From Gammaproteobacteria bacterium (GTDB lineage Bacteria; Pseudomonadota; Gammaproteobacteria; JAADGQ01), in assembly GCA_021648145.1 (NCBI GenBank), contig JAKITI010000007.1, forward strand, positions 1,018 to 65,017: a stretch of DNA of 64,000 nt, written 5' to 3'. A program made the position numbers and the translations under genes. Shown here piece by piece: positions 625-18,703 of this stretch. The notes under the pieces are model-generated. The model searched no databases and had not been told where the DNA came from. It saw only the letters and a list, made by a program, of their open reading frames with translations. The stretch's first letter is position 1. Each line of letters opens with the position of its first letter.

Positions 625-625
625 A

Positions 626-1360: not shown

Positions 1361-1376
1361 AATAAAGTGTCCTAGG

Positions 1377-2357
1377 TCAGTGTGAATTTTTCTGTAGCCC
1401 TTTCGAATAATACATGATTCCCGCCTTATCAATAATAATCGCTTCAACTTCAGGAGTTGATTCGATAAGTTTCATGCCTTTTATTTGTCCCAAAACAAAT
1501 ATGCTTGTCGATAGTGCGTCGGTCGTAGTGGTGTTTGTGCCGATAACTGTAACGCTACGGGTTGAGCGGATGGATTCTCCTGTCTTAGGGCTGATAATGT
1601 GATGGTAGCGGATACCGTCACTTTCAAAATATCGCTCATAATCTCCAGAAGTCGAAATTGCAGCATCTGTCATAGGCAGAGCTGCGACAAGCTCTTGTTT
1701 GTTGCGAGGGTCACGGATACCGACCATCCAGGGTCGCCCTCGCTTATCACCGAGTATACGGCTATCACCGCCAGCCGTGACTATAGCTGAAGTAATACCT
1801 CTATCTGATAGCAGTGTAATGGCACGATCCACAGCATAACCTTTGGCTATGCCGCCCAAATCAATTTGTACATATTTTTGGTTGAAGTAAATTGTTTTTT
1901 TTGCTGGGTCGATTTTAATGTGACGATAATTAATTGCAGGTAGTTTGTTAGATAGTCTGGATGGTTCAGGTTTAATTTTGTTGCGGTAGTCATATAAGTT
2001 ACCGACACTGGCAAATGTGATATCAAATGCACCTTGTGTACGTTCAGAGAACTGTAGCGAACGTTGTATAAGGTTCATCATTTCGTCGCTGATGACAACG
2101 GTTTGCCTGCCCGCCAGGTTGTTAATCTTTGACAGTTCACTATCAGGTTTATAAGGACTCATTAAGCGGTCGATGCGATGCATCTCATCAATCACCGCCT
2201 GAATAGCTTGGTGAGCTTGCTCTTTTTGGTCATGCCACAATTCTACTTGAACCACTGTGCCCATAATGGACTCTTCTCGGCTGAGCCACTCGGCACTTGT
2301 TAGCTGTGGCCATGCCAATATCAAAGTGAGAAAAATGAATTTTTGTCGTTTCAGCAT
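1377..2357 (-). CDS. apbE: FAD:protein FMN transferase (ApbE family lipoprotein)
   Basis: 326 aa with a signal peptide, MGTVVQVEL, and DLGGIAKGYAVD, typical of ApbE flavin transferases. Confidence 0.85.
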   Translation of the reverse strand: MLKRQKFIFLTLILAWPQLTSAEWLSREESIMGTVVQVELWHDQKEQAHQAIQAVIDEMHRIDRLMSPYKPDSELSKINNLAGRQTVVISDEMMNLIQRSLQFSERTQGAFDITFASVGNLYDYRNKIKPEPSRLSNKLPAINYRHIKIDPAKKTIYFNQKYVQIDLGGIAKGYAVDRAITLLSDRGITSAIVTAGGDSRILGDKRGRPWMVGIRDPRNKQELVAALPMTDAAISTSGDYERYFESDGIRYHHIISPKTGESIRSTRSVTVIGTNTTTTDALSTSIFVLGQIKGMKLIESTPEVEAIIIDKAGIMYYSKGLQKNSH

Positions 2358-2392
2358 ATTATTTCACTTGTAACCAAAAAGTCACAGGCTGA

Positions 2393-3034
<642 letters not shown>

Positions 3035-3486
3035 TTAGAGCAATAAAAATCTAATTGTACCTGAGCAGGGAAGTTCACGAAACGGGGTGGATGAAAACAA
3101 GACCTAAATCCTGGTTCCCACATAGAGATTTCGATATATTTAATTTAACAATACCAGTAAGAACAATAAAAACTCGAAACGGTTTGTCAGGTAAAGCCTG
3201 ATGAAGAAATATATGATAATCAGGTTAGATTAGGACGCTACACTGGCGTAGAAAATTTATTTTTTAATATTTTGTCAGTCAGACCGATAAAAAATCATCG
3301 GCTTCAGGTACTTTGTATAAAGTACTTCTGTATGATTGGAAGCTACGCTGATCAAAACTCCGTGAGATTACGTATAGCCATACAATAAGAAGGGAGGGTA
3401 GAATATAAGTCTAGCTGGCATCACTTTTGCACGTTTAACTTATGTTCTACTATTTATATAATTGTTATAAAATTTTTGGTACTCTA

Positions 3487-3726
3487 ATGACTTCTTCGAC
3501 GATAAGAAAAATACTGGATACACATGGCAGGCTCACTAAGCCTGCAGATGAATTGCAAGACCATAGTGATTTATATCATGCAGGTTTAACCTCATTAGCT
3601 ACGGTGAGTTTGATGTTAGCTATAGAAGAGGAGTTTGATATAGAATTTCCAGACTCAATGCTGGGTCGAAAAACCTTTGGTAGTATTGAAGCGATTGTTG
3701 ATGCTGTCGATGAACTACAGGAATAA
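3487..3726 (+). CDS. acyl/peptidyl carrier protein (phosphopantetheine-binding)
   Basis: About 80 aa with a DxxxLGLTSLAxV-like helix II (HAGLTSLATVSLMLAIEEEF) carrying the Ser for 4'-phosphopantetheine. The start is taken at internal ATG 3487 (MTSSTIRK). Confidence 0.7.
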   Translation: MTSSTIRKILDTHGRLTKPADELQDHSDLYHAGLTSLATVSLMLAIEEEFDIEFPDSMLGRKTFGSIEAIVDAVDELQE

Positions 3727-3832
3727 ATGCCCCTGCACCATTTGAAAGCACTTAGCGGATTTTTCAAACAAACCGCCTGATTTCGCTACTCTCCGAGGGT
3801 AGAAAATCTTTATAATTGTAAAGGGATAAAAA

Positions 3833-5020
3833 ATGTTCAATCATGAATCACTGAACTCTATGAAATTTAAGAAGTTAGTTTTAGAGGTTAAGCGAATTGG
3901 TAAAGATGTTATTGCGCCAAATGCTCATGATGTCGATGAAAAGGCTCGATTTCCTAAAGAAAGCTTTGATGCGCTGAAAGATTTAAGACTGCTGAGTGCT
4001 TATCTACCTGAAAGTATGGGTGGAATGGGGCTCGACATTGTACAAATTACTAAAATTTGTGAAGTATTGGGTCATTATTGTGGTTCGACCGCAATGATTT
4101 ACGCAATGCATAAAATCCAGGTCGCTTGTATTCTTCATAATTCGGGTGGGTCAGATTACTTCAAATCCTACTTAAAAAAATTATCAAGTGAACAAAGGCT
4201 TATTGCCTCAGCCACCACTGAAACAGGAGTGGGTGGGGATTTACGTTCGAGTATTTGTGCAGTTGAAAGCAGCGGGTCATCTTTCAAGTTAGTTAAAAAA
4301 GCCCCAGTAATATCGTACGGAATTGATGCCGATGACTTGATTATTACGGCACGTCGTAATCCTCAAGCGGCAAAAAGTGATCAAGTTCATGTTTTATTGA
4401 ATAAAGGGCAATATGAGCTGGAACAAATTTCAGGTTGGGATACTTTAGGGTTTCGTGGCACTTGCAGTTCTGGTTTTACTGTGACGGCAAAAGGTGAAAA
4501 TGAACAAATTTTACCGACCCCATTTGCGGATATTCTGAGCCAGACGATGCACCCTTTTGCACACATTACGTGGAGTGCATTATGGGTGGGAATTGCAGGC
4601 GATGCTGTTAATCTGGCACAGCAGTTTGTTAAACGTGAGGCTAAGCGAAATTTGGATATGCCACCTATATCAGCCATTCGACTGGGGGAGGTTGAGTGTG
4701 TATTGCAGACAATGCGAAATAATGTCGATGTGGCGGCAACTAACTACCTTAAAATGTTAAATGAGGGGGATGCCGAAGCCTTTACTAATTTTGGGTTTGG
4801 AATTCGTACAAATAATCTAAAAGTGGCGAGCTCTCAGTTAGTTGTTGATATTGTTGGCAAGGCTATGTTTATTTGCGGAATTTCAAGTTATCGCAATGAT
4901 TCAAAAACCAGTTTATGTCGTCAGTTGCGTGATGCTTATGGGGCTGCGCTGATGGTGAATAATGATCGTATTTTACTGCATAACTCGACGTTGCTTCTGA
5001 TGCATAAAGGAGATGAATAA
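3833..5020 (+). CDS. acyl-CoA dehydrogenase family protein (likely acts on an acyl/aminoacyl-S-carrier protein)
   Basis: 395 aa with an acyl-CoA dehydrogenase N-terminal/middle domain pattern (GGMGLDIVQITKICEVLGHYCGSTAMIYAMH...). It lies between the carrier protein gene and the synthetase-like ligase gene. Confidence 0.7.
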   Translation: MFNHESLNSMKFKKLVLEVKRIGKDVIAPNAHDVDEKARFPKESFDALKDLRLLSAYLPESMGGMGLDIVQITKICEVLGHYCGSTAMIYAMHKIQVACILHNSGGSDYFKSYLKKLSSEQRLIASATTETGVGGDLRSSICAVESSGSSFKLVKKAPVISYGIDADDLIITARRNPQAAKSDQVHVLLNKGQYELEQISGWDTLGFRGTCSSGFTVTAKGENEQILPTPFADILSQTMHPFAHITWSALWVGIAGDAVNLAQQFVKREAKRNLDMPPISAIRLGEVECVLQTMRNNVDVAATNYLKMLNEGDAEAFTNFGFGIRTNNLKVASSQLVVDIVGKAMFICGISSYRNDSKTSLCRQLRDAYGAALMVNNDRILLHNSTLLLMHKGDE

Positions 5021-5950
5021 GTGTGTTTGTCTCATGATTCTCTGGATGAAGCTTATAATTTTTATCGGCAACAATTATTAGAGGCTGGGTTATTACTTTC
5101 GTCGGGTGTGCCTGGTGTGTACGGCCTGAGTGGCGATTTTGAGGCTGTTGTTGAAGCTTTTGAAGGTTATGTTACCCGCATGGGTCACCATTTGGAGCCG
5201 GAGGTCGTACGCTTCCCTCCAATAATCAGTAGAAATACCTATCTATCTACTGATCATATTAAAACATTCCCTGACTTGATGGGGTCGGTTCACTCTTTCA
5301 AGGGAACCGAAAAGGATCATCTCAGGTTGGTACAAAAGCAGGAAGATGCAGAGAACTGGGCAGAAGAGTTAGACCCCACAGAGGTGATGATGGTGCCCGC
5401 TGCGTGTTACCCATTGTACCCAACCGCTGCAAATACTATATTGCCTGAAGAGGGTCGACTGGTTGACCTTAGAGCTTTTGTTTTTCGGCATGAGCCGTCA
5501 CCAGACCCTGCTCGTATGCAAATTTTTCGACAGAGAGAGTATGTTCGTCTTGGCACGCCTGAGCAGGCACATGCTCATCGGGATTATTGGTTGAAACGTG
5601 GAGAAGAGATGTTATGTGCACTCGGGTTGGATGTGAAGCCTGTTGTTGCAAATGACCCATTCTTTGGTCGAGGAGGACGAGTGATGGCTGCAACGCAAAA
5701 AGAGCAAGAGCTTAAGTATGAGCTTGTAGCGCCCATCGCATCGACAGAAAAATTAACCGCTATTGCATCCTGTAATTACCACCTTGATCATTTTGGTCAA
5801 GAGTTTAGTATTAAAACACCTGATGGAGCGTTTGCTCATACTGCATGTGTTGGCTTTGGCCTGGAGCGTATTACGCTTGCAATGTTCAAAAAACACGGTT
5901 TTGATGCTGAAAAATGGCCCCTTGAGGTTCGGGGGCTATTGGAAATGTAA
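5021..5950 (+). CDS. amino acid--[acyl-carrier-protein] ligase (truncated class II seryl-tRNA synthetase-like, no tRNA-binding domain)
   Basis: 309 aa. It has class II aaRS motif 2-like FRQREYVRLG and motif 3-like GFGLERITLAMF, the size of a bare SerRS catalytic core. A GTG start directly follows the ACAD stop. Its stop overlaps the next ATG (taATG). Confidence 0.7.
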   Translation: MCLSHDSLDEAYNFYRQQLLEAGLLLSSGVPGVYGLSGDFEAVVEAFEGYVTRMGHHLEPEVVRFPPIISRNTYLSTDHIKTFPDLMGSVHSFKGTEKDHLRLVQKQEDAENWAEELDPTEVMMVPAACYPLYPTAANTILPEEGRLVDLRAFVFRHEPSPDPARMQIFRQREYVRLGTPEQAHAHRDYWLKRGEEMLCALGLDVKPVVANDPFFGRGGRVMAATQKEQELKYELVAPIASTEKLTAIASCNYHLDHFGQEFSIKTPDGAFAHTACVGFGLERITLAMFKKHGFDAEKWPLEVRGLLEM

Positions 5951-6921
5951 TGCATCAGATAATTTCTCTAACCCCAGAAACTTACTGTCGTCATCGTATT
6001 CATGTTCAGGAAAGAGACTGGGCTGAAACCAACTGTTATGTTGATATCTGGATTGAATTATTGCATGCATTAGAATATGAACCGATTGCTGCGATGCCTT
6101 ATACCCTGGCGATTGATTTTGAAGGCGATCAATGGACTTTCTTTAAGTTTCCTTTGGCTGATTTATATGATCTCTATGGAATAGATGTTCAGGAGCTTGC
6201 GATCTGGCAGCCTCTGGTTCAACATATTGAACAACAAGTGGCTCTAGGAAAACCCGTATTGGTTGAGCTGGACTCTTATTATTTGCCCGATACAGCCGGA
6301 ACGGCTTATAAGATAGCGCATGTTAAATCGACAGTCGCCATTATTAAAATTGATGTGGAAAAACAACATATTGGTTATTTTCATGGCCAAGGATACTACT
6401 ATTTGTCGGGCGATGATTTTATTGATGTATTTCGCTTGCGTGGTGAGCAGGATCCCGCCGTGTTATCGCCTTACGTAGAAATTGCAAAGCAGCGGCGCGT
6501 CAATAAACTGGATGCTTCCCAGACGCTTGATGTTTCTCTGAAACTATTAAAAAAACAGTTAAGACTATTACCAGAGAGCAATCCTTTTTTTAGTTTCAAG
6601 AAAAGGTTTGAAGAAGATTTGAAATGGTTGATGCATGAAAATATTGATACATTCCATCAATATTCATTTACGACATTCAGGCAGTTTGGTGCTTGTTATG
6701 AATTAGCGGCTACTTATTTGGAGTGGCTATCCCAGCAAGGTGTCACTGGCTTGGTGGAGGCTAGGGAAAATATTAAGTCTATCTCTGAAACATCCAAGTT
6801 TTATCAATTTCAGTTGGCACGTGCAATGAGCCGTAAGAAACCGCTTAATCTTGCTCCAGTTGATGCGATGGCTGAACACTGGGACTTAGCAATGGATCAG
6901 CTAACCACTAAATTTTTATAG
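5950..6921 (+). CDS. hypothetical protein co-transcribed with the aa:CP ligase (possible acyl/aminoacyl transferase)
   Basis: 323-aa ORF whose ATG overlaps the ligase stop codon (translational coupling). No catalytic motif is recognised with confidence. Confidence 0.55.
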   Translation: MHQIISLTPETYCRHRIHVQERDWAETNCYVDIWIELLHALEYEPIAAMPYTLAIDFEGDQWTFFKFPLADLYDLYGIDVQELAIWQPLVQHIEQQVALGKPVLVELDSYYLPDTAGTAYKIAHVKSTVAIIKIDVEKQHIGYFHGQGYYYLSGDDFIDVFRLRGEQDPAVLSPYVEIAKQRRVNKLDASQTLDVSLKLLKKQLRLLPESNPFFSFKKRFEEDLKWLMHENIDTFHQYSFTTFRQFGACYELAATYLEWLSQQGVTGLVEARENIKSISETSKFYQFQLARAMSRKKPLNLAPVDAMAEHWDLAMDQLTTKFL

Positions 6922-6946
6922 GCTATGATGTAGAGAGTTAAATGGA

Positions 6947-9439
6947 ATGATTCAACTTGTCGATGACTGGTTTCTCACTCAATCTGAACCCGACATGTGT
7001 TTGGTACCTTCTGATCTAATAAACCAAAAACTCAATTGGCTGACGGCTTGTGTGCCTGGAACCGTTGCGCAGTCCTTGGCTGGAGCATGTCAATGGTCAC
7101 TTGATGATCGGGTTGATTTTGATGATTACGATTTTTGGTATAGGAAAAAATTTGATATAGCAGGTTTATCAGAACAGTTGCCTGTTTATTTAAACTTTTC
7201 TGGATTGGCAACGATTTGTGAAGTTTGGCTCAATGGGCAACGGATTTTAGAATCCAATAATATGTTTCTAAGTTATCAAGTTGATATTGCAAAATATATT
7301 CAGCCCAAGAACGAACTGTACATATGTTTTCGCTCATTAAATAAGGCTCTGTCTCAGCGCCGCCCTCGTCCGCGTTGGAAGACAAAGCTGGTCGAGCGGC
7401 AACAGTTGCGTTGGTTTCGTACCACTTTGCTTGGCAGAATTCCTGGTTGGACACCGCCAATTGCTCCTGTAGGGCCGTGGCAGACAATATCTTTAAGCGA
7501 ACACCTGGAGCCAATCAATATAGAGGTCACTCCATCAATTGAAGGGCGTGCGGGAGTTGTCAAATTCTCTTGTGATATTTATCATGACAGTGAAGGAAAA
7601 GTGGACGCTGTGCTCTCAGTCGGAGGTATTAATGTTCAGCTAACCATTGAGAAAAAAAGTGGTGGGAGTCGTCTATACGGAACACTTGAAATTGATGATG
7701 TTACGCTATGGTGGCCTCATACACATGGCAAACCTTCACTGTATCCGGCGCTACTGCGCATCAAAGTCGCAGAAAAAGAGAGATCACACGCACTCTCCTC
7801 TATCGGTTTTAAAGAGGTGCGCATTGATCGCTCCGAAAACGAGTTTTGTCTCACGGTAAACAATACAGACATCTTTTGCAGAGGGGCATGCTGGACTGTT
7901 AATGATATTATCTCCTTAACAGGTGATTTGGGCGCACTTGAGCATACGCTAACTCTAATGCGAGATGCAGGTGCAAACATGATTCGTGTGGGCGGTACGA
8001 TGGTTTATGAGCAAGATGCTTTTTATCAATTGTGTGACCGGCTCGGAATCATGGTTTGGCAGGATTTTATGTTTGCAAATATGGATTATCCTGTGGACGA
8101 CGACAACTTCAGGGAATCTATTCAAACTGAAGCGCATCAGCTTCTCGCACGTCTGCGTCAATATGTTTGCCTGGCAGTCTATTGTGGTAATAGTGAAATA
8201 GAGCAACAGGCCGCCATGCTGGGAATGCATTCTGACGCTTGGTCAAATGATTTCTTCTTGAAACAGTTGCCGGAACTTTGTAGTACACACCACCCTGGTA
8301 TTCCTTATGTTACTTCCACACCTTCAGGAGGGGCTTTGCCCTTTCATACTGACACAGGAGTGACTCACTATTATGGAGTAGGGGCATACCTGTGCTCAGT
8401 ATCTGAGGTGAGACAGCATAATGTAAAATTTACTTCGGAGTGTCTTGGATTTTCCAATATGCCTGTTGCCAAAACACGAAACTCAGTGTTGGCGGGGCAA
8501 ATTCCTGTGACCCATCATCCACGATGGAAGGAGAGGGTTCCCCGTGATTCAGGGACGGGATGGGATTTTGAAGATGTACGCGACCATTATTTGAAAGAGC
8601 TGTTTTCTGTTGATCCTGTGCAATTACGCAGTTTTGACAATGATAAGTACCTGGCATTGAGCGAAATAGTTTCTGGAGAAATGATGTCACAGGTGTTTGC
8701 CGAGTGGCGCAGTGATCATAGTGACTGCTCTGGAGGGTTGGTCTGGTTTCTAAAAGATCTTTTACCTGGTGCCGGATGGGGAATCATTGATAGCAATGGT
8801 TTACCTAAAGCTTGTTATTATTACTTGAAACGCTGCTGGCAGCCGATCTCTATATGTATGACCAATGAATCACTCAATGGCTTGCACCTGCATGTGATCA
8901 ATGACACGGCTCAAAATTTTACAGGTGAATTGGAGGTGACATTACTGAATGAGTCGAGTGTCACTATTGTTAATGTGAAGACGGAAGTGGTTGTAGATGC
9001 AAGATCAACGCGACTTATAGGGTTAGATCAGCTGCTTAATACATTTTACGATACAACATATTCTTATCATTTCGGTCCATCAAAACATAACGTTGTTTCA
9101 GTTCGCTTATCAAATAAAGAAGGGAGCGAACTGAATAGTGCATATTATTTTCCGAATGCAGAAGTTCCTCGTTTAGAGGAAAACTCTGGAATTATTGCTG
9201 AGTTGGTTGAGTCTGGTAAAGAGAGGTATCAGCTGAATTTGTCATGTGAAAAATTTCTTTATACGGTGAATGTTGATATACCCGGTTTTATTCCAGATGA
9301 TAACTATTTTCATTTGATGCCTGGCATTAAAAAGAGTGTCGAGGTCATTCGAGTGGGTGATGGTCAAAAACCTGCAAAAGGTTATGTGAGTGCTTTAAAC
9401 ATAAGTGAAGATGTTAGAGTTAAAGTTATTTTTCCCTGA
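6947..9439 (+). CDS. glycoside hydrolase family 2 protein (beta-mannosidase-like), cytoplasmic
   Basis: 830 aa. The GH2 sugar-binding region and TIM-barrel region (ANMIRVGGTMVYEQDAFYQLCDRLGIMVWQDFMFAN...YCGNSEIEQ with acid/base Glu) closely resemble beta-mannosidases. No signal peptide. Confidence 0.8.
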   Translation: MIQLVDDWFLTQSEPDMCLVPSDLINQKLNWLTACVPGTVAQSLAGACQWSLDDRVDFDDYDFWYRKKFDIAGLSEQLPVYLNFSGLATICEVWLNGQRILESNNMFLSYQVDIAKYIQPKNELYICFRSLNKALSQRRPRPRWKTKLVERQQLRWFRTTLLGRIPGWTPPIAPVGPWQTISLSEHLEPINIEVTPSIEGRAGVVKFSCDIYHDSEGKVDAVLSVGGINVQLTIEKKSGGSRLYGTLEIDDVTLWWPHTHGKPSLYPALLRIKVAEKERSHALSSIGFKEVRIDRSENEFCLTVNNTDIFCRGACWTVNDIISLTGDLGALEHTLTLMRDAGANMIRVGGTMVYEQDAFYQLCDRLGIMVWQDFMFANMDYPVDDDNFRESIQTEAHQLLARLRQYVCLAVYCGNSEIEQQAAMLGMHSDAWSNDFFLKQLPELCSTHHPGIPYVTSTPSGGALPFHTDTGVTHYYGVGAYLCSVSEVRQHNVKFTSECLGFSNMPVAKTRNSVLAGQIPVTHHPRWKERVPRDSGTGWDFEDVRDHYLKELFSVDPVQLRSFDNDKYLALSEIVSGEMMSQVFAEWRSDHSDCSGGLVWFLKDLLPGAGWGIIDSNGLPKACYYYLKRCWQPISICMTNESLNGLHLHVINDTAQNFTGELEVTLLNESSVTIVNVKTEVVVDARSTRLIGLDQLLNTFYDTTYSYHFGPSKHNVVSVRLSNKEGSELNSAYYFPNAEVPRLEENSGIIAELVESGKERYQLNLSCEKFLYTVNVDIPGFIPDDNYFHLMPGIKKSVEVIRVGDGQKPAKGYVSALNISEDVRVKVIFP

Positions 9440-9510
9440 TGTCGCCATAAATTGTAATTTAAATAGATAAATAAACAGTAAATAATGCAGGGAGAAAGCT
9501 TCAAAATATA

Positions 9511-11334
9511 ATGGTTGATTCTGATTTAGTCGTTCGTACGCCCTTTTATTTTGGCCCAGATGGCAAGAAATTGATTGGCTGGTTGCATACAAACGCCACA
9601 ACTGAAAATCTTGATACAGCAGTGGTTGTATGTCCCCCACTCGCTGTAGAGTATATGAGCACCTACCGCTCAATGCGTTATGTGGCTGATTATTTTGCGT
9701 TGGCGGGAATACCTGCAATACGGTTTGATTATCATGGTACGGGTGACTCATCTGGTTTTAATGATGAGGGTAATCGCCTTGATCATTGGCTTTGGAGTAT
9801 TGAGCAAGCAATGAGCGAGGTCAAAAAACTTTCAGGGTGCTCCAAGGTGGGTCTGTTTGGTTTGCGAATGGGTGCGACGCTCGCTTCATTGGTTTCAGCG
9901 AGAGTTGATGTTGATTTTTTAGTTCTATGGGCTGCTTTAGAGAGTGGTCGGAGATATATTCGTGAAATAAAAACAATTCAGATGACTGGAGTCAGTCAAA
10001 CTGGGGTCGCGCCCAGTTTTGTTGAAGCTGGAGGAATGGTTTATTGGCCTCAAACGGCTGATGCAATCAGTCAGATAGATTTAATAAAGATTACACCTAA
10101 GGCTTCTCGTGTATTGATTATTCCCCGGGATGACTTGCAAGTAAAGACCAAATTGAAAGATGGCTGGGTCGCTCAAGGGGTTAGTGTAGAGCAGTTTGAA
10201 TATTCGGGTTATTCCGAAATGTTGTTGTTGGCACTTAAATCGGTTGTGCCTCATGAGACTATTCATAAGGTGGTGAGCTGGGTCAGAGCGGGAATTGATT
10301 GTCCGAGTGCTACAGAGTGTGAAGCTGCAGATTTAGATGTTGCTACGAGCATATGGGTCAAGTCCATCTATGATAAAGAAAAGTATGGTCAAAATGAATC
10401 AAAAGTGAAAGAGTCATTTGTTCGATTTGGATCGGATAACAACAATTTTGCTATCTTGGTCGAACCGCCTGAAATAATTTCACCAGAACGTCCTATCATC
10501 ATTATTGCGAGCTCGGGTGCTACGCACCGAGTTGGTCCGAGCCGATTATATGTGTCTTTAGCCAGAAGTTTGGCCTCTGAAGGTTTTCGCTGTTTGAGAA
10601 TTGATATCCCTGGCTTGGGGGATAGTATTACTCATGACCACGAACAAGAAAATAGAGAGTACATTGATAAATCAAGTGATGTGATTCGTCAAGCTATGGA
10701 GTCATTCGGCTCTGCATACAAAAAAAACAGATACGTTGTGACAGGTTTGTGTTCAGGTGCTTATTTCTCTTTTCATGCGGCTCTGGATCTTAAGAATGTG
10801 GATATCGTAGAGAGTATTTTAATTAACCCTCTTACCTTTTACTGGTACGAAGGTATGGAGTTTGATAGTTCACCTGCAAAGAATTTTGGGCACTGGAATT
10901 GGTATATGAAGGCGTTGAAGGATCCCAGTAGCTGGTTAAGATTAATAAGAGGAGGGTCAGATTATTCTGAACTTTATGAAACGATAAAAAATCGAATAAA
11001 GATTATCATATCCGCAAAAATAAATTCAATAAAGAGTAGCAGAAGTGATAATGTCGCTGCTGAAGGTCATTCTAAAAATAATTTAAATATTGATTTAATG
11101 CAAATTGCTTCTCGCAACAGGCACTTATCATTTATTCTTGCAAGAAGCGATCCTGGGTATGATATTTTGATGACCAGCGCAGGAAAAACCGCGAAAAAAC
11201 TTATTAACGATGGCAAAATAGATATTCATTTCATTGAAGATGCGGATCATACGTTCTCAAAGTATCAACCCCGATGTGATGCGATTGATTGTATGGTTAA
11301 GCATATTATTTTTCGGTATGGAAAAGAGTTGTAA
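9511..11334 (+). CDS. tandem alpha/beta-hydrolase fold protein
   Basis: 607 aa with two alpha/beta hydrolase-like halves. The second carries a GxSxG-type elbow (GLCSGAY). The first has a degenerate elbow. Confidence 0.65.
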   Translation: MVDSDLVVRTPFYFGPDGKKLIGWLHTNATTENLDTAVVVCPPLAVEYMSTYRSMRYVADYFALAGIPAIRFDYHGTGDSSGFNDEGNRLDHWLWSIEQAMSEVKKLSGCSKVGLFGLRMGATLASLVSARVDVDFLVLWAALESGRRYIREIKTIQMTGVSQTGVAPSFVEAGGMVYWPQTADAISQIDLIKITPKASRVLIIPRDDLQVKTKLKDGWVAQGVSVEQFEYSGYSEMLLLALKSVVPHETIHKVVSWVRAGIDCPSATECEAADLDVATSIWVKSIYDKEKYGQNESKVKESFVRFGSDNNNFAILVEPPEIISPERPIIIIASSGATHRVGPSRLYVSLARSLASEGFRCLRIDIPGLGDSITHDHEQENREYIDKSSDVIRQAMESFGSAYKKNRYVVTGLCSGAYFSFHAALDLKNVDIVESILINPLTFYWYEGMEFDSSPAKNFGHWNWYMKALKDPSSWLRLIRGGSDYSELYETIKNRIKIIISAKINSIKSSRSDNVAAEGHSKNNLNIDLMQIASRNRHLSFILARSDPGYDILMTSAGKTAKKLINDGKIDIHFIEDADHTFSKYQPRCDAIDCMVKHIIFRYGKEL

Positions 11335-11349
11335 AGGAAGGAAGTTATT

Positions 11350-12117
11350 GTGTTCGATTCGATCAACAAAGAGCTGTATTCAAGCAGTGATGGAGTTCAC
11401 TCCTATATCAATACTACATTGCAGGCACCCGAGGTCAGCATCCTGGTAAAATATAAAGATGCCTATTACGGTAAAAAAATATTAGACATTGGTTGTGGTG
11501 CTGGCCGGACATCCCATTATTTCCGTAATTTTACTCATCAATATATTGGCGTGGACTACTCAAAGCCCATGGTTGATTTTTGTAAAAGCCAGTACCCTGA
11601 ACTGGCATTTGAGCATTGTGATGCAAGAGATTTAAGCCATTTTGATGATGGTGAATTTGATTTTGTCATGTTTTCATACAATGGGATAGATTATATTGGT
11701 CATGATGATCGCATGCAGGTTTTAGATGAAATACAGCGCGTTTTAAAAAATGGCGGGGTGTTTGTTTTTTCGGCACATAATAGAAAATATAACCACATTA
11801 TTCTAAAACCAAAGCTACAGTTGACACTTCACCCAGTTAGATTGCTTAAAAATGTAGTGAGTTATTATAAGCAAGAAAAAAATCATAAAGAGCTGATATC
11901 AAATGAGGTACACAATAAAAGCTTTTCGATTTTAAATGATAATGGAAATAATTTTGGCTTGCTAACCTATTATATTGACAGGTATAACCAAACTAAACAG
12001 CTAACAAAGAAGGGTTTCAAATTACTGGAAATGTTTCAGTTGAATGGCCAGGTTTTGTTGCCTGAGAAAGATGATTCTGACAGCGGTTGGATCTACTATG
12101 TATCCGAAAAAATATAG
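11350..12117 (+). CDS. class I SAM-dependent methyltransferase
   Basis: ILDIGCGAGRTSHY (motif I) and VFVFSAHN (post-I/II). GTG start. Confidence 0.75.
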   Translation: MFDSINKELYSSSDGVHSYINTTLQAPEVSILVKYKDAYYGKKILDIGCGAGRTSHYFRNFTHQYIGVDYSKPMVDFCKSQYPELAFEHCDARDLSHFDDGEFDFVMFSYNGIDYIGHDDRMQVLDEIQRVLKNGGVFVFSAHNRKYNHIILKPKLQLTLHPVRLLKNVVSYYKQEKNHKELISNEVHNKSFSILNDNGNNFGLLTYYIDRYNQTKQLTKKGFKLLEMFQLNGQVLLPEKDDSDSGWIYYVSEKI

Positions 12118-12157
12118 CAAGTCAGAATGTCCAAGTTACTACGTGCTCGCTCTTTAC

Positions 12158-13258
12158 TTATGCCTTATTGAAATAGTCATATAATTTATATAAATATTTT
12201 ACCCATTGGTTGCGTATAATTTGTACATTGACAATGTTGATACTGGAGCGGGTTAGTCGCTCTTTGTAGTGTGTGTTTTTTCCTTTGCCAGCTAACATAT
12301 CATAGCTGTTTATATCGCTAGCGCATGCGTGCTCTATTTCATAGCCAAAATGTATATAACCTAATGCAATTTTTTTATGAACACTTTCATCAAATCCTGC
12401 TTGAATATTATACTTTTGATTATTAACAAGATAGTTGTACTGGATCGAAACGGGATTGTTATCTATAGATAATATTGAGAAGCATAATGCATTTCGTTGA
12501 TCCATTAATTTCGCTAGAGTCGTATTGAAACGTAATCGTTTATCCCGAAAAACGGGGGATCCCCACCTTTTAGCGTGTAGGTGATTAAGTTGTTTGAATT
12601 GAGACTCAATATCATCGTTCTGTTTTGGATTGAAGTGGATCTCTCCCAGCTGATCAAGTATTTTTCGCCGATTAAATAAGCTAAGGCGTGTATTCTTCCC
12701 TAAATTTTTAATATAGTGGTCAAAGCTTCCGGTTGTTTCTATAAAAAAGCTTTTGAACTCCTCTGCTATGCGATAGTAGGAATTAGGAATGGGCTTCTCT
12801 TTTTTTAGCAGCTTGTATGTGTCTGAATCTTTTTTTAAGTCAACGAGTATGAGTTCATCCCATGTTGATAAGGTGTTTATATGTTTGTAGAAAGCGTTCA
12901 CAACTTCATTTGATAGTGATTTTTCTGCAATAAAATCAAGGAGCTCAGTTCGCATCGTCGCTTTACCATGCCAGCAGTTACCAATGAACTGCAGCCTATG
13001 AGTCACAATGATCTTTTTTGACTTAGCTTTTGATAGATATAAAGGTGCAAGACCAACCAGATTACCCTTGTCATCTACGGCGGCCAAAAGTTGTAACTGC
13101 ATCTGCTCAGGTTCGGCAAAGGTGTGCCACCATGTATGTTGCCACTCCCAACTCATAAATAGTGGATCTGAGTTTGATTTTTCTAATAGTAAATTCCAGG
13201 CGTGCCTGGAATCTCTAAACTGTTTTTCATTCCACGTCTGGATGTTGATTTGCTTCAT
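12158..13258 (-). CDS. GNAT/FemAB-fold acyltransferase (BioF2/CelD-like)
   Basis: 366 aa. The size and the WNxKQFRD...HxHAKRW region resemble the CelD/BcsL and FemAB-type acyl/aminoacyl transferase fold. Assignment is by overall resemblance only. Confidence 0.5.
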   Translation of the reverse strand: MKQINIQTWNEKQFRDSRHAWNLLLEKSNSDPLFMSWEWQHTWWHTFAEPEQMQLQLLAAVDDKGNLVGLAPLYLSKAKSKKIIVTHRLQFIGNCWHGKATMRTELLDFIAEKSLSNEVVNAFYKHINTLSTWDELILVDLKKDSDTYKLLKKEKPIPNSYYRIAEEFKSFFIETTGSFDHYIKNLGKNTRLSLFNRRKILDQLGEIHFNPKQNDDIESQFKQLNHLHAKRWGSPVFRDKRLRFNTTLAKLMDQRNALCFSILSIDNNPVSIQYNYLVNNQKYNIQAGFDESVHKKIALGYIHFGYEIEHACASDINSYDMLAGKGKNTHYKERLTRSSINIVNVQIIRNQWVKYLYKLYDYFNKA

Positions 13259-13432
13259 ATAAGGTAAAATATCTCAAGCCATTCGTATAAGTTGTGAGTC
13301 AGGTCATATTTCGTGACCGTTCTTTAGAGATTTTTAGTAAAGACAGGTAAATAGGGGGATAGGGGGATATCCATACCATACTTATAAAATTAATGTGCAT
13401 CCTTGCTATTCCGAATATTATAAATAGCCGAG

Positions 13433-14236
13433 CTATTTAATAAACCGATGAGGGTAGATAATTTTCATAATAAAAGCTGGAATCATTTTCTTGATTTTTT
13501 TACGTAGTTCATCTGGCATCAAATCGCCAAAACTATTTAGAAGACGCAGGTACTTTCCACGGTAGCCATTGGTTCTGAGCTTTCTGTCATACCCCAGATC
13601 ATTTTCACTTAATTCAAGTTGAAAGAATTGGCTGATTTTTCTGGCTGTTTCTTTTGAATTAAGAGCGTAATCTGAATAGTTCACAACAATATGTGGAATA
13701 TTGTATTGTTGCATTGCATGCTCTGCTGTTTTCATATGGTGCTCAATGCGCCTAAAAGAGGCTTGTTTATCATCGTTGTTCCATCTTAGGCGAAGAAAAC
13801 TTTGATGTATCTCTTTTGGGTCACGTTTTAGCAAAATAACCTTTGTGTTTGATTGCTTTAATAAAGGCCACCAATACCCAATTGTGTAACATAAACTCGG
13901 GTCTTTCCATAACCAGGGGGTATGTTCTTCAAACTGTGCAATCAGCTCTTTATGTGCTTTTGATGGTGTAAGGGAAAGTATTTTTTCTGTTTGTTGATCA
14001 GAAATAGCATCAAATAACCACGTATTTTCACATTCAAATCCAGCTGCTTTAAAAACCTCTGCGTTACATTTTTTTAAAGATTCAGCCTCCCAAAATCCAT
14101 ATGGATTATATTCATTGGCTTGCTGCAGTTGATTTTCTTCATTTTCAGTAACAAAGTAGCCACGATTTTTGAATATTGCAGCAGTCATGCTGGTTCCTGA
14201 GCGAGGTGAGCCAACAATGATGACATTTACACTCAT
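13433..14236 (-). CDS. sulfotransferase family protein
   Basis: IIVGSPRSGTSM (5'-PSB PAPS-binding loop) and LLKRDPKEIHQSF (3'-PB RDP motif). Confidence 0.7.
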   Translation of the reverse strand: MSVNVIIVGSPRSGTSMTAAIFKNRGYFVTENEENQLQQANEYNPYGFWEAESLKKCNAEVFKAAGFECENTWLFDAISDQQTEKILSLTPSKAHKELIAQFEEHTPWLWKDPSLCYTIGYWWPLLKQSNTKVILLKRDPKEIHQSFLRLRWNNDDKQASFRRIEHHMKTAEHAMQQYNIPHIVVNYSDYALNSKETARKISQFFQLELSENDLGYDRKLRTNGYRGKYLRLLNSFGDLMPDELRKKIKKMIPAFIMKIIYPHRFIK

Positions 14237-14254
14237 TTTTTAACGTCTCGTTCT

Positions 14255-15034
14255 CTATTCACTTATTTCAGGTTTTTTATACAGGTGGACAAAGCGATCT
14301 GTTCGTTTGATGACTTCTTTTTTCCAGATATCCAATTGATAGTTGTCATCAGGGTTTCTGAGCACATCCAATGCTTTTACAAACTTGAAACCAGCACTTT
14401 CAATATCTTTTTTCGCCCACTCTTCATCAATCCGGTGCAGTTTAGGGGCACTCTCTTTTCCTGTTCCAGGCTCTGCCGCATGGTCAATAATTAATAATTT
14501 TCCGCCTGGTTTTAGCGCGGTGATGACTTGCTCAAAAAACTCTTCTCTATTGGCAGTAATGATGGGGTCTTTTCGTGGAACATAGATGTCATGATAGCTT
14601 AGACCAATGAAAATAAGGTCTGTATTGCTCGGTAGTTTCATATCAGCAAATTCGCTATCGAGGCGGACAACATTTTTCAGTCGTTCATTTTTTAATCGTT
14701 TCTCGAGATCTTCTTTTGAGAAATTTAGAAATAGCGAGTTATTTTGTATAGTCACACGTCCATCATCACCCACAATGTAATTAAAGAGTTCTGAGTAGTA
14801 ACCACCGCCGCCAAGAAGATCAATAACAGTGTCTCCAGATTCAAGGCCAGAAAAGTTTAATACTTCGAGTGGTTTGCGTAATTTATCTTTTGAATGATCC
14901 TCTGTATATCGATCTGGCTGATGTATCGCTCTTTCATTAAGAGTCATGCTATCTAGATCTTTGGAACATCCAGCTACAAATACAACTACAGTAAGAAACA
15001 GGACTTTAATACGACCTAATATATTCATAATCAT
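14255..15034 (-). CDS. class I SAM-dependent methyltransferase, lipoprotein
   Basis: Lipobox LTVVVFVAGCSK and glycine-rich SAM motif VIDLLGGGGYYSELF. Confidence 0.65.
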   Translation of the reverse strand: MIMNILGRIKVLFLTVVVFVAGCSKDLDSMTLNERAIHQPDRYTEDHSKDKLRKPLEVLNFSGLESGDTVIDLLGGGGYYSELFNYIVGDDGRVTIQNNSLFLNFSKEDLEKRLKNERLKNVVRLDSEFADMKLPSNTDLIFIGLSYHDIYVPRKDPIITANREEFFEQVITALKPGGKLLIIDHAAEPGTGKESAPKLHRIDEEWAKKDIESAGFKFVKALDVLRNPDDNYQLDIWKKEVIKRTDRFVHLYKKPEISE

Positions 15035-15122
15035 TACCTTGTTTTATCTCTCAAAAATAAGTGGCTCAACTGATTTTTACAAGATTATACAGCACACTGT
15101 TAAGAATACAGTTTTTTTAATA

Positions 15123-16520
15123 TCAGATTTTTCCATCTTTGGCGGCTTTGAGTACGAGTGCATCAAATTTATCCGCTGCCATAAGGTTACGTTCTGCGAC
15201 AATAATGTTGACAGGTTTACCCGTTTTTTCAGACTCTTTAGCGACTTCAGCCGCAGCGGCATAACCGATATCTGTATTCAATAATGTTGCAAGGGCAACA
15301 CTGCTGTGCAGAAAAGCTTTACAGCGATCACGATCGACTTGTAAACCTTTTAGGTTTTTTTCAGTGGCGGCGTTAGTTGCATTGGTGAGCCACTCCATCA
15401 TATCGAATAGTGCTGAACCGAGGGCGGGCATCATCACGTTGAGTTCCAGTTGTCCTGCCTGAGTCATATAACTGATAGCCGAATCTTGCCCAAGAACCTG
15501 AAAGCAGACTTGATTGAGCATTTCAAACATCACAGGGTTCACTTTGCCCGGCATGATGCTGGAGCCTGGCTGTACGGCAGGCAGCATGATTTCACCCAGA
15601 CCTGTGCGTGGCCCTGAGGCGAGCAGACGCATGTCGTTAGAGATTCGTATTAACTCCAGAGAGACTTCACGAATGGTTGATGACAGGTGTTGTAGATCAT
15701 TCATAGACTGCATTTGTGCCGCCAGATCATCGGCTGGACGAATCGCCTCGAAGGTCAGCTGCGCCAGTGCTTTTGCGACATTTTTAATATAGCCCGGTGA
15801 GGTATTAAGCCCTGTGCCGGCAGCACTGCCTCCCAGTCCAACTTCACAAAGCGGATCACGGCAGCTTTCTAAACGTGCTGCACAGCGCTTTAAAGTCCAG
15901 GCGTAAGCACTGAATTCACGACCTAATGTTGTGGGTACGGCATCTTGCAAGTGGGTTCGGGCACTTTTAACTGTATCTTCTTCTTGTTTGCCAATGCGTG
16001 CATATTCTGTGGCCATATCTTCAATAGCAGCAATTAAACGGGGGAGTTTTTTAAGCGCTGTTAAACGAATGGCTGTGGGGATTGTATCGTTGGTGCTTTG
16101 CCCCATGTTGACATGGTCGTTGGGATTAATGGGGCTGTATTCACCTTTTTCCCCCCCCAGAGCGACACTGGCTAAATTGGCAATCACTTCATTGCTGTTC
16201 ATGTTATGGCTGGTGCCTGCACCAGCTTGAAAACGGTCGACTACAAATTGATCAATATAATGACCTTCAAGAATTTGATCGCAAGCGGCAATAATTGCTT
16301 TGGCTTGTTTGTCGTCAAGCCAGCCCCCTTGTTGGTTGGCCTCTGCCGCAGCACGTTTGATTTTTACGTGAGACTGTACGAAGTCTCGGTCAGGTGCTCG
16401 GCCACTGATCGGGAAGTTGGCGATGGCACGGGCGGTCTGAATGCCATACCAGGCATTCGCTGGAACTTGAAGTTCGCCTAAACTGTCTTTTTCAATACGG
16501 TAATCATCTGTTTGAGTCAT
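15123..16520 (-). CDS. aspA: aspartate ammonia-lyase
   Basis: 465 aa in the fumarase/aspartase family. The signature is GSSIMPGKVNPV (aspartase-type, V after NP). Confidence 0.85.
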   Translation of the reverse strand: MTQTDDYRIEKDSLGELQVPANAWYGIQTARAIANFPISGRAPDRDFVQSHVKIKRAAAEANQQGGWLDDKQAKAIIAACDQILEGHYIDQFVVDRFQAGAGTSHNMNSNEVIANLASVALGGEKGEYSPINPNDHVNMGQSTNDTIPTAIRLTALKKLPRLIAAIEDMATEYARIGKQEEDTVKSARTHLQDAVPTTLGREFSAYAWTLKRCAARLESCRDPLCEVGLGGSAAGTGLNTSPGYIKNVAKALAQLTFEAIRPADDLAAQMQSMNDLQHLSSTIREVSLELIRISNDMRLLASGPRTGLGEIMLPAVQPGSSIMPGKVNPVMFEMLNQVCFQVLGQDSAISYMTQAGQLELNVMMPALGSALFDMMEWLTNATNAATEKNLKGLQVDRDRCKAFLHSSVALATLLNTDIGYAAAAEVAKESEKTGKPVNIIVAERNLMAADKFDALVLKAAKDGKI

Positions 16521-17368
16521 TATTTGTGTTCTCCTGAAGAAATTTTAAGTAATACTTTGTCAAGTGCGCGTGAGGTCAACAGTCGCCGCAGTGCTGCAAA
16601 AAGGTAGGCTGGAAATGTGACGGGGTAGCGTAGTTTAGGTCGAGGACTTTCCAGTGCATGAATAAGCTTTTTGAGTACCGCATCGGGCGGCAGTGTAAAA
16701 GGCGCAACAGGGCCAGGATTTGTAAGGCGCTTTTCGATCGACTGGTAAATCGTGCGATGAACACTGTTTTCTGAGTCGATATTTTCCTTATACTTTTTGT
16801 AGCCATTGGCACGAAACTGGCTGGTAATAGGGCCTGGCTCAATCAGTGAGATTAAAATGTCGCTATTATTGATCTCTAAACGTAGTGTATCGACTAACCC
16901 TTCCAGTGCATATTTGCTGGCATTATAAGCGCCGCGATAGGAGAGTGCGACATAGCCCAGCAGTGAGCTGTTATAGATAATACGCCCATGCCCTTGTTGC
17001 CGCATGACTGGAATGATGCAGTTTGTCAGTTCCAGCGTTCCGAATAGATTGGTTTCAAACTGTGCACGTAATACGTCACGAGTTAAATCTTCCACGGCAC
17101 CCGGTTGACCATAAGCTGCATTATTAAAGAGTGCATACAAAGTGCCCCCTGTACGAGATAACAACTCATCAACTGCGCTATGAATGGAGTCACTTTGATC
17201 TAAATCCAATAGAAAGCTTTCAAGGCCTTGTGCTTGCAGTGAATCAACATCTTTTTGCTGACGTGCAGTCGCAAATACACGATAGCCTTTTTTGTGTAGT
17301 CCCAATGCACATGCTAAACCAATGCCGCTGGAACAGCCGGTGATTAATATTGTTTTTTTGTTTGTCAT
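16520..17368 (-). CDS. SDR family oxidoreductase
   Basis: TGCSSGIG Rossmann motif, NNAAYG and a YxxxK catalytic pair (YNASK). Confidence 0.8.
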   Translation of the reverse strand: MTNKKTILITGCSSGIGLACALGLHKKGYRVFATARQQKDVDSLQAQGLESFLLDLDQSDSIHSAVDELLSRTGGTLYALFNNAAYGQPGAVEDLTRDVLRAQFETNLFGTLELTNCIIPVMRQQGHGRIIYNSSLLGYVALSYRGAYNASKYALEGLVDTLRLEINNSDILISLIEPGPITSQFRANGYKKYKENIDSENSVHRTIYQSIEKRLTNPGPVAPFTLPPDAVLKKLIHALESPRPKLRYPVTFPAYLFAALRRLLTSRALDKVLLKISSGEHK

Positions 17369-17376
17369 GTGGAGAG

Positions 17377-17796: not shown

Positions 17797-18032
17797 CAGT
17801 CGTTATAACGATCATAAATTTCATCTCTGGAAAACTTGAATCCGCTAGCAGATTTCCCCGGCATATTACTCGCTATTCGTACAAACTCATCGGCTGATTT
17901 TTCTGCATTACATTCGCCTGTAAGTTTGAGCAAATAATCTCTAATCAACTGGTTTAGCGATGTATTGTGCGCGCTGGCATATTCACGCCCCTTTTTGATC
18001 AGTTCTGTATCTGCTGAAAGTGTAATGTTCAT
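17796..18032 (-). CDS. vapB: antitoxin (VapB-like)
   Basis: 78-aa ORF whose stop overlaps the vapC start. It has a DNA-binding-like N-terminus. Confidence 0.55.
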   Translation of the reverse strand: MNITLSADTELIKKGREYASAHNTSLNQLIRDYLLKLTGECNAEKSADEFVRIASNMPGKSASGFKFSRDEIYDRYND

Positions 18033-18612: not shown

Positions 18613-18703
18613 TAATAAATTGACAAATAAACCAAACCTACTTTACTATTACTTAGGAGTTATTACTAATAAGTTTTAAATATTAAATTAAAAGAGGTAC
18701 TCA

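Follow-up and report, generated by a model that had tools for sequence, protein, structure and literature searches.

A carrier-protein cassette with an aminoacyl-tRNA synthetase-like ligase and clade-specific tailoring genes as a candidate aminoacyl-transfer pathway

We analysed a block of ten non-housekeeping genes in a 64,000-nucleotide stretch of contig JAKITI010000007.1 from a gammaproteobacterium (the window, which here means that whole stretch). The block was found to consist of two layers, a six-gene core at 3442-11334, entirely on the plus strand, and a four-gene add-on at 11350-15034. The core encodes an acyl carrier protein (ACP), a flavoprotein resembling acyl-CoA dehydrogenases (ACAD), an amino acid:[carrier protein] ligase, a DUF1839 protein, a glycoside hydrolase of family 2 (GH2) and a fused double alpha/beta hydrolase, and the add-on encodes two putative methyltransferases (MT1 and MT2), a GNAT-type transferase and a sulfotransferase. 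We propose that the block specifies a carrier-protein pathway that would transfer a small aminoacyl-derived acyl group to a sugar acceptor, with tailoring that is specific to lineages, and we place the probability of this overall mechanism at about 0.5. The aminoacyl group is probably oxidised before transfer, a polysaccharide precursor or an exopolysaccharide amino sugar is the likeliest acceptor, and methylation and sulfation are best read as lineage-specific additions. An initial annotation, made from the letters of the sequence, had described about 11.6 kb of non-housekeeping genes between gmk and aspA. Ten open reading frames (ORFs) were found exactly where it had placed them, both flanks were verified, and the domain content it had assigned to the ten genes was borne out by Pfam and NCBIfam profile matches.

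The ligase, encoded at 5021-5950 on the plus strand, scored 435.4 bits against NF005479 (cut-off 357), with residues 6-308 of 309 covered by the match. The ACP gene at 3442-3726 (plus strand) scored 107.7 bits against NF005480 (cut-off 72) and also matched PF00550; the equivalog cut-offs of both families were thus passed. The true start of the ACP is most likely at M16 (position 3487), because the family model aligns from residue 19 and the relatives are 79-87 residues long, and the phosphopantetheine-bearing serine is Ser51 of the ORF, in the motif GLTSL. The ligase is a truncated class II catalytic core like that of seryl-tRNA synthetase (SerRS), without the tRNA-binding domain, and matched the Bll0957 structures 3mey and 4h2w at 5e-69 over residues 24-307. 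All 20 homologues compared keep C129 (AACYP), E158 (RHEPS) and C276 (TACVGFG), and Bll0957 has the same residues at the aligned positions. In ligases of this kind the Cys/Glu/Cys site serves zinc-dependent recognition of the amino acid. Bll0957, Bll6282 and Atu2573 resemble the window ligase in having a SerRS-like core of about 310 residues next to a dedicated carrier protein, and they were described together with their carrier proteins by Mocibob et al. 2010 (PMID 20663952, as reported in PMC6789786; PDB 3mey and 4h2s-4h2y). Characterisation of those proteins did not go beyond the loading step, leaving their pathway open; the window carries four clade-specific tailoring genes in addition. A literature search on Bll0957, Atu2573 and Bll6282 returned nothing related. 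By homology to these characterised enzymes, a small amino acid is predicted to be loaded on the dedicated carrier protein: the ligase would activate glycine or alanine, the substrates of the characterised homologues, with ATP and form a thioester on the phosphopantetheine arm of the ACP.

The ACAD-like flavoprotein, encoded at 3833-5020 on the plus strand, matched Acyl-CoA_dh_N (PF02771) at 2.5e-16, and its closest Protein Data Bank (PDB) entry was 7p98 (4e-20). The FAD-binding motifs were kept across 67 orthologues, whereas the catalytic glutamate of the C-terminal YEG motif was swapped for a conserved M..NDRI. As the usual glutamate base is missing, the reaction may be something other than plain alpha,beta-dehydrogenation, and the protein may instead be a dehydrogenase with another base, an oxidase or an oxygenase. 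In the proposed pathway it would oxidise or otherwise modify the tethered group.

The candidate for the condensing step is the DUF1839 protein, encoded at 5950-6921 on the plus strand (PF08893, 390 bits). Its AlphaFold2 model had a mean pLDDT of 87.7, and the top 14 PDB matches of this model in Foldseek were all AziU3/U2, CtaG or CcbD (E 4e-7 to 3e-4, TM scores 0.51-0.62), with best E values of 4e-7 for AziU3/U2, 2e-6 for CtaG and 5e-5 for CcbD and no other significant PDB neighbours. The matched structures include CtaG with its C11A, H128A and D144N variants, and CcbD with an amino-sugar substrate and with a carrier-protein domain. C29 (ETNCY) of the window protein stands at the N-terminus of a helix spanning residues 29-40, and C29, H124, H145 and H236 were invariant in 38-46 homologues. 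The lincosamide condensation enzymes CcbD/LmbD and CtaG from closthioamide biosynthesis (PDB 7yn2, 9dkr and entries beginning 9qv) share their fold with the model (TM about 0.6, probability 1.00), likewise carry the catalytic cysteine at the start of a helix and use acyl- or aminoacyl-S-carrier proteins as substrates, with an amino sugar as the acceptor of CcbD; identity to DUF1839 is, however, 11-14%, and the genomic context of DUF1839 is not that of an antibiotic cluster. In CcbD/LmbD, prolyl is passed from the prolyl-S-carrier protein to the catalytic cysteine and then to the amine of the amino sugar, and the triad of CcbD is Cys-His-Glu (PMC12945683). DUF1839 has independently been classed as papain-like with a C-(T/S)-H triad, and its genomic context suggested a role in glycan processing that is dependent on acyl-CoA (PMC10318531). 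Because of the fold and the invariant residues, DUF1839 is predicted to be a carrier-protein-dependent transacylase or amide synthase: Cys29 would take the acyl group and pass it to the amine of the acceptor in a ping-pong reaction like that of CcbD and CtaG. The match to AziU3, taken together with the sulfotransferase, also led us to consider aziridine formation by sulfate elimination, which is not favoured, since DUF1839 keeps its invariant cysteine and most cassettes have no sulfotransferase.

The GH2 protein, encoded at 6947-9439 on the plus strand, has the five-domain architecture of beta-mannosidases, with Glyco_hydro_2_N2, Glyco_hydro_2, Mannosidase_ig and Ig_mannosidase domains, and was closest in the PDB to the Dictyoglomus enzyme DtMan (5n6u, 1.5e-67), followed by BtMan2A (2je8, 3e-44). 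Glu417 (CGNSE) and Glu498 (TSEC) correspond to the acid/base E462 and the nucleophile E555 of BtMan2A and were kept in 50 orthologues. The segment FGWDWGP of DtMan, by contrast, aligned with RIPGWTP, so that the WDW motif, which binds mannose in the -1 subsite, is replaced by PGW, a replacement conserved in the orthologues. With the WDW motif absent, beta-mannosidase specificity is not to be assumed, and identity as a plain beta-mannosidase was rejected. The view of the initial annotation, which had called the protein a cytoplasmic beta-mannosidase-like GH2, thus holds for the architecture, for the catalytic glutamate pair and for the location, no signal peptide having been found in the protein, but not for the substrate motif. 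The enzyme is taken to be a retaining beta-glycosidase whose catalysis is intact and whose -1 site has been remodelled. DtMan and BtMan2A have the same architecture and glutamate pair, whereas the GH2 of the cassette is cytoplasmic and always coupled to the carrier-protein genes; it might free the sugar acceptor or trim the product.

The last core gene, at 9511-11334 on the plus strand, encodes the fused double hydrolase. Its N-terminal half resembles hydr2_PEP and carries Arg119 at the nucleophile elbow (GLRMG), aligned with the nucleophile serine of solved hydrolases, and its C-terminal half resembles hydr1_PEP and carries Cys414 (GLCSG), His581 and a conserved DxxH. The same arginine/cysteine pattern was seen in an unfused hydrolase pair beside another cassette (locus L005). 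The pair, with its arginine pseudo-site and its cysteine site, might handle the thioester, in a second off-loading or an editing reaction. Membership in the exosortase-A hydrolase families was rejected, the scores of the best-matching families being 115.3 bits against a cut-off of 168.45 for TIGR03100 (C-terminal half) and 77.6 against 202.75 for TIGR03101 (N-terminal half). The exopolysaccharide (EPS) loci of the XrtA/PEP-CTERM system (TIGR03098-03101) nevertheless resemble the window in combining an adenylating enzyme, an ACP, an alpha/beta hydrolase pair and a Fem-like GNAT in an EPS setting; they differ in the class of the ligase, and their NCBIfam definition includes neither DUF1839 nor GH2. 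TIGR03019 is the FemAB-related family of such loci. No exosortase gene was noticed among the annotated ORFs of the window, the rest of the genome not having been searched.

To describe the distribution of the cassette, loci were collected with one genome per species. At least 592 were found, of which the best 80 were analysed; their ORFs were clustered with a filter on GC content at third codon positions (GC3) against antisense artefacts in high-GC loci, and presence was counted only where the contig was long enough to judge. The order ACP, ACAD, ligase, DUF1839, GH2 and tandem hydrolase defines the core, which was collinear from ACP to GH2 across these 80 loci. An ACP upstream of the ligase and an ACAD were each present in 71 of 72 assessable loci, DUF1839 in 73 of 74 and GH2 in 60 of 65; the tandem hydrolase followed GH2 directly in 31 of 56 loci and lay elsewhere in the locus in another 10, which gives 41/56 in total. 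The genes are therefore linked and not scattered, and the conservation as a block that the initial annotation had asked about was found, with the core order seen in 80 genomes. This linkage is far beyond chance. The carriers among the 80 loci span about ten phyla and include Gamma-, Beta- and Alphaproteobacteria, Planctomycetota, Acidobacteriota, Gemmatimonadota, Chloroflexota, Verrucomicrobiota, Acidimicrobiia and others; the six-gene core is an ancient unit shared by many phyla. When the ligase and DUF1839 were used as queries, each search yielded more than 7,000 clusters of proteins at 90% identity, and both figures are lower bounds. Among the matches listed, the nearest named relatives of the window ligase were from Pleionea, Aliikangiella and Kangiellaceae. 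The same five genes, ACP to GH2, were annotated by the NCBI prokaryotic annotation pipeline (PGAP) on conjugative plasmids of Rhizobium leguminosarum and Burkholderia gladioli, and the window ligase was 46-52% identical to plasmid-borne homologues of Burkholderia, Azospirillum, Rhizobium and Cupriavidus.

Two loci carry a parallel module beside the cassette, at 1425-6367 in L005 and at 1-6643 in L089. The module contains a class I adenylating enzyme, similar to DltA and to nonribosomal peptide synthetases, an ACAD, and two hydrolases, one hydr2-like of the arginine type and one hydr1-like of the cysteine type; in L089 the adenylating enzyme has a fused carrier domain. The cassette of L089 itself (14094-20980) consists of ACP, ACAD, DUF1839, GH2 and tandem hydrolase, and the gene for the synthetase-like ligase is missing between ACAD and DUF1839, which suggests that the loading enzyme may be exchangeable between cassettes.

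The genes around the cassette point to polysaccharides. Within 6 kb of it, the commonest neighbour families were glycosyltransferases of family GT4 (19 loci) and polyprenyl-phosphate sugar phosphotransferases (12 loci), and nucleotide-sugar enzymes (ManC, UDP-sugar dehydrogenases and epimerases) recurred in smaller, lineage-restricted groups of neighbours. In the closest relatives, the block was found beside an XrtA-type EpsB_2 glycosyltransferase or beside WecB/WecC, AsnB-like, GT2 and GT4 genes. In one of these (L003, ligase 75% identical), a TIGR03013 glycosyltransferase of the XrtA/PEP-CTERM type (EpsB_2, 591 bits) and a NodU-like carbamoyltransferase lie directly upstream. In another (L083, 5927-8244), the ACP gene is divergent from genes for WecB (UDP-GlcNAc 2-epimerase, 502 bits) and WecC (UDP-ManNAc dehydrogenase, 552 bits), so that the neighbouring polysaccharide would contain a manno-configured aminouronic acid; these enzymes may perhaps be linked to the mannosidase-like GH2, which we note as a lead only. 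Within the window itself, a locus of the poly-N-acetylglucosamine (PNAG) type lies at 58768-63934, 44 kb from the block. It starts with an 834-residue protein with a PgaA beta-barrel and tetratricopeptide (TPR) repeats, and the two ORFs that follow it (61269-62669 and 62672-63934) occupy the positions of pgaB and pgaC. PNAG contains amines of de-N-acetylated glucosamine.

In Burkholderia cenocepacia, the core occupies the interval from berB to berA and adjoins the bep genes for an exopolysaccharide. Both berB and berA encode c-di-GMP-responsive regulators that control the Bep exopolysaccharide (PMC5552954, PMC9684580, PMC3584217); berB is BCAM1342 (I35_5193) and berA is BCAM1349 (I35_5200) (PMC9684580). 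The RpoN site published for berA (TGGCACGTAAATCGCT, PMC5552954) was present once in each of six Burkholderia loci, 177-192 bp upstream of a minus-strand gene for a 260-residue Crp/Fnr protein, and a sigma-54 activator with a GAFTGA motif is encoded just beyond GH2. In the annotated copy of B. gladioli, ManC and a beta-helix protein are among the genes after the activator, matching Bcam1340 and Bcam1339 (PMC3584217). From these landmarks and the numbering of berB and berA, it follows that the six intervening genes are GH2, DUF1839, ligase, ACAD, ACP and a Crp/Fnr paralogue. The berA-berB interval was located in the Burkholderia cepacia complex at 5840-15911 of L070 and likewise in L062, L063, L068, L073, L079 and L088. 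A literature search found no paper on Bcam1343-1348 (I35_5194-5199).

The add-on comprises MT1 (11350-12117, plus strand; Methyltransf_25/11, 1e-21), the GNAT protein (12158-13258, minus strand; PF13480, 5e-14), the sulfotransferase (13433-14236, minus strand; Sulfotransfer_3, 1e-13) and MT2 (14255-15034, minus strand; weak Methyltransf_31 and PCMT matches). These four genes are absent from most of the 80 loci, and they were found together beside the core only in close gammaproteobacterial relatives (L004, L083 and L085, whose ligases are 75-82% identical); in L084 and L086, which are shorter contigs, the same block is cut off by the contig end before its last one or two genes. The order differs among them. 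In L083 and L085 the core is followed by MT1 (plus), GNAT (minus) and then MT2 and the sulfotransferase (both plus); in the window the pair of MT2 and sulfotransferase is inverted relative to these two; and in L004 this pair lies upstream of the ACP gene and the pair of GNAT and MT1 is inverted. The flanks also change, from gmk and aspA in the window to amtB and miaB in L004, to WecB, WecC, GT4 proteins, an AsnB-like amidotransferase and a GT2 protein in L083, and to GT4 proteins, an Acyl_transf_3 protein and CapA- and CapK-like proteins in L085. Three arrangements and four flanking contexts of the ten-gene block were thus seen.

MT1 is a cytoplasmic class I S-adenosylmethionine (SAM) methyltransferase that starts 15 bp after the hydrolase gene on the same strand and is the last gene of the plus-strand series. 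It adjoins the cassette in L004, L008, L009, L074/75 and L083-86, and homologues stand beside the ACP gene in Planctomycetota and Acidimicrobiia. GNAT homologues were found near the cassette in L004, L011, L012, L028, L048, L083-86 and L089, and they also occur there in Planctomycetia, Longimicrobiales and other lineages. By sequence the GNAT protein belongs to Acetyltransf_6, one source naming it as CelD/BcsL type; the sequence search gave PF13480 only, with no match to Pfam FemAB, to NCBIfam or to a PDB sequence. Its fold was therefore modelled. The AlphaFold2 model (pLDDT 93.4) has a tandem-GNAT, Fem-type fold, and in Foldseek the first match was FemX (1xe4, E 2.7e-12, TM 0.58/0.63), followed by Sba18/Sbb17, which are aminoacyl-tRNA-dependent, FemA and MprF/aaPGS. 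This agrees at the level of the fold with the FemAB-like transferase of the initial annotation. FemX/FemA, Sba18/Sbb17 and MprF/aaPGS share the tandem-GNAT fold at E values of 3e-12 to 1e-8 and TM scores of 0.5-0.7, whereas identity to enzymes of the FemX/FemA type is 8-12% and the Pfam family is Acetyltransf_6 instead of FemAB. The donor may be an aminoacyl-tRNA, an aminoacyl-ACP or an acyl-CoA.

The sulfotransferase has the PRSGTS loop for the 5'-phosphosulfate and an RDPxExxxS motif, as in enzymes that use 3'-phosphoadenosine 5'-phosphosulfate (PAPS). MT2 is always followed by this cytoplasmic enzyme, as in L004 and L083, and in L085 the sulfotransferase gene begins right after MT2 at the contig end. 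The lipobox of MT2, VAGC, is conserved in L004 and L085 (VAGC, LVGC or ITGC in homologues), in keeping with the lipoprotein methyltransferase that had been noted from the letters; the protein also has the SAM-methyltransferase motif DLLGGGGYY, of which GGGGYY is conserved, and homologues that are 61-76% identical adjoin the cassette. In the clade of the window, MT1 would methylate the product, the Fem-type GNAT would acylate or aminoacylate it and the PAPS-type enzyme would sulfate it, and MT2 would act outside the cytoplasm. An EPS locus without the core within 10 kb (L090) contains a GNAT homologue (52% identical) together with a priming transferase, a carbamoyltransferase, glycosyltransferases, an ABC exporter, two sulfotransferases and an MT1-like methyltransferase. 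From this content we conclude that the families of the add-on genes belong to polysaccharide tailoring. Sulfated polysaccharides are expected from marine bacteria, and on the assumption that this holds here, the sulfotransferase, MT1, the Fem-like transferase and MT2 would fit such polymers.

Taken together, the resemblance of DUF1839 to the transacylases CcbD and CtaG, the resemblance of the GNAT protein to FemX and the polysaccharide loci in which the blocks of relatives lie support the initial annotation in its reading of the block as a biosynthetic or modification locus, in two sub-operons, for an aminoacylated, methylated and possibly sulfated glycoconjugate or small molecule. It had left room for the genes to belong to a known polysaccharide or lipid pathway; no known polysaccharide pathway accounts for the cassette.

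Several observations weigh against transfer of an aminoacyl group to a polysaccharide. No glycosyltransferase, priming transferase or exporter was found beside the block in the window, and the cassette on the Rhizobium plasmid also stands alone. The core proteins are all cytoplasmic, and no transporter is conserved with them. The hydrolase pair remains under the cut-offs of the exosortase families. MT2 is exported to where SAM is not expected, which leaves its role unexplained. Every structural analogue of DUF1839 belongs to a pathway for a small-molecule antibiotic and none to a polysaccharide pathway. PF08893 was its sole Pfam match at E <= 0.01, and the BtrH_N family was not matched, for which reason DUF1839 is to be seen as an analogue or a distant relative of the cysteine transacylases and not a member of their family; in addition, its C-(T/S)-H triad has a displaced histidine and a geometry unlike that of these enzymes (PMC10318531). 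In Burkholderia, Bep was described as an unsubstituted, all-alpha tetrasaccharide, from material extracted in 0.3 M NaOH and studied by nuclear magnetic resonance in NaOD (PMC7084887), an alkaline treatment that would be expected to strip base-labile esters. A transposon screen for Bep-dependent wrinkling hit Bcam1330-1341 only (PMC3584217), so that the cassette is not required for making the Bep polymer. Finally, product, acceptor and amino-acid specificity are not readable from the letters.

The chief competing explanation has the cassette producing a diffusible small molecule (an N-acylated amino sugar, an aminoglycoside-like metabolite or a signal, for example) instead of modifying a polymer, with the polysaccharide neighbours reflecting a shared supply of sugar nucleotides or shared regulation. 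The module that makes the 4-amino-2-hydroxybutyrate (AHBA) side chain of butirosin, BtrI/J/K/O/H/G, follows a parallel logic, with an ACP, an ATP-dependent loading enzyme, a flavoenzyme and the papain-like transferase BtrH, which acts on the amine of an amino sugar; unlike the cassette, it uses an ATP-grasp loader and a two-component monooxygenase as the flavoenzyme, and it has no GH2 and no hydrolase pair. The solitary cassettes of the window and the Rhizobium plasmid, the cytoplasmic location of all its enzymes and the antibiotic pathways of CcbD, CtaG and AziU3 (PMC12945683) point the same way. No exporter, regulator or scaffold-building gene is conserved with the cassette, however, the neighbours that recur are GT4 proteins, priming transferases and EPS regulators, and an EPS locus again contains homologues of the GNAT, methyltransferase and sulfotransferase. 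We regard a small-molecule product as a serious possibility that nonetheless falls well short of being probable.

It appears improbable that the six-gene core alone is the functional unit, and that MT1, GNAT, sulfotransferase and MT2 are an unrelated fragment for polysaccharide tailoring which lies beside it by shared ancestry. Such a division would agree with the absence of the four genes beside the core in most phyla, with the occurrence of homologues of three of them (GNAT, methyltransferase and sulfotransferase) in an EPS locus without the core within 10 kb, with the GC content of the four-gene segment (0.368, against 0.417 for the core) and with the export of MT2. Yet the add-on has stayed by the core in relatives, in all three arrangements and all four flanking contexts, MT1 starts shortly after the hydrolase gene on the same strand, and homologues of MT1 and GNAT stand by the core in Planctomycetota, Acidimicrobiia, Longimicrobiales and other lineages. 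Least plausible of all is a catabolic or salvage function, in which GH2 and the hydrolases would degrade an imported acylated or aminoacylated beta-glycoside and the ACAD would oxidise the freed acyl group. An intact glycosidase, two hydrolase domains, an ACAD and a conserved core without a glycosyltransferase would suit this function, but the pairing of a ligase that spends ATP with its own carrier protein marks a biosynthetic route, neither a sugar transporter nor a catabolic regulator is conserved alongside the cassette, the ACAD lacks the standard catalytic glutamate, and DUF1839 resembles transacylases and not hydrolases; we consider it very unlikely.

Carrier-protein-dependent transfer to a sugar acceptor hence remains our preferred reading. 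A bolder version, in which the genes from ACP to GH2 form a general system that N- or O-aminoacylates sugars of exopolysaccharides with a small oxidised amino-acid unit and DUF1839 is the condensing enzyme, is speculative, and we hold it to be rather doubtful. If it were true, the orphan synthetase-like carrier-protein ligases, whose pathway was left open in 2010, would gain a biological role, and the Bep of B. cenocepacia, which is under c-di-GMP control, would receive from the cassette a base-labile group that is lost in alkaline extraction. Should the acceptor prove to be a matrix polysaccharide, polymers would be decorated here in a new way that bears on biofilms. The pair of ligase and ACP was already known, and the cassette is annotated piecemeal in RefSeq. 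New are the definition of a fixed cassette, the folds of DUF1839 and GNAT, the arginine/cysteine hydrolase pair, the polysaccharide and berA-berB context and the ten-gene marine variant. Ligases that have been characterised biochemically and structurally since 2010 are now placed in a fixed cassette of five to six genes, DUF1839, with its CcbD/CtaG-like fold, is proposed as a concrete condensing enzyme, and the cassette is tied to polysaccharide loci, including the genetically tractable berB-berA site of B. cenocepacia.

Outside this system, the block is bounded on the left by the housekeeping gene gmk (2393-3010, minus strand; TIGR03263 guanylate kinase, 235 bits, cut-off 160) and on the right by aspA for aspartate ammonia-lyase (15123-16520, minus strand; NF008909, 592 bits, cut-off 510). 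Neighbouring plus-strand genes overlap by 1 bp at the closest and are 106 bp apart at the farthest, as a single operon would allow. The switch of orientation reported at 12.1 kb is real, and on the minus strand the order is MT2, sulfotransferase, a gap of 174 bp and GNAT. The best sigma-70-like promoter match upstream of the ACP gene (3435-3462, plus strand; TTAACT-16-TATAAT, 10 of 12 positions matching) is weak evidence, as promoter and terminator scans of the region gave site numbers no higher than those of shuffled controls. A scan of positions 1-20000 against Rfam at E <= 1 for a riboswitch or leader upstream of the ACP gene gave one spurious long noncoding RNA match only.

The label of a mobile genomic island was not adopted. 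No tRNA gene was found in the 64-kb window, flanking or boundary repeats in 2300-16600 were short chance matches only, and no transposase, integrase or insertion sequence (IS) gene was noticed among the annotated ORFs of the window. The GC content of the whole block was 0.401, against a window mean of 0.423, and that of the core was 0.417; the 3.7-kb add-on was the only deviant part, its value of 0.368 being the lowest of any 3.7-kb stretch in the window (mean 0.422, standard deviation 0.022). The word island in the initial annotation has only the shifting flanks and the add-on's low GC (0.368 vs 0.422) in its favour, and no mobility genes support it; similarly, the ten genes are linked in close relatives, as it had proposed, but they are a six-gene core with four clade-specific genes and not one indivisible unit.

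Elsewhere in the window, three very large surface-type proteins are encoded in a row at 36686-50222: one of 1350 residues with FG-GAP, OmpA barrel and OmpA C-terminal domains, one of 999 residues with cohesin, CHB_HEX_C and LamG domains, and one of 1980 residues with 24 FG-GAP repeats and TSP3 repeats. A Fur-family regulator similar to PerR and Irr is divergent from a di-heme enzyme of the MauG/MbnH family at 18151-19723. At 626-2357, the ORF of a PP2C phosphatase (626-1447, with a TTG start) overlaps an ApbE-like ORF (1377-2357) by 71 bp, and the upstream start codon in this overlap is probably mis-called.

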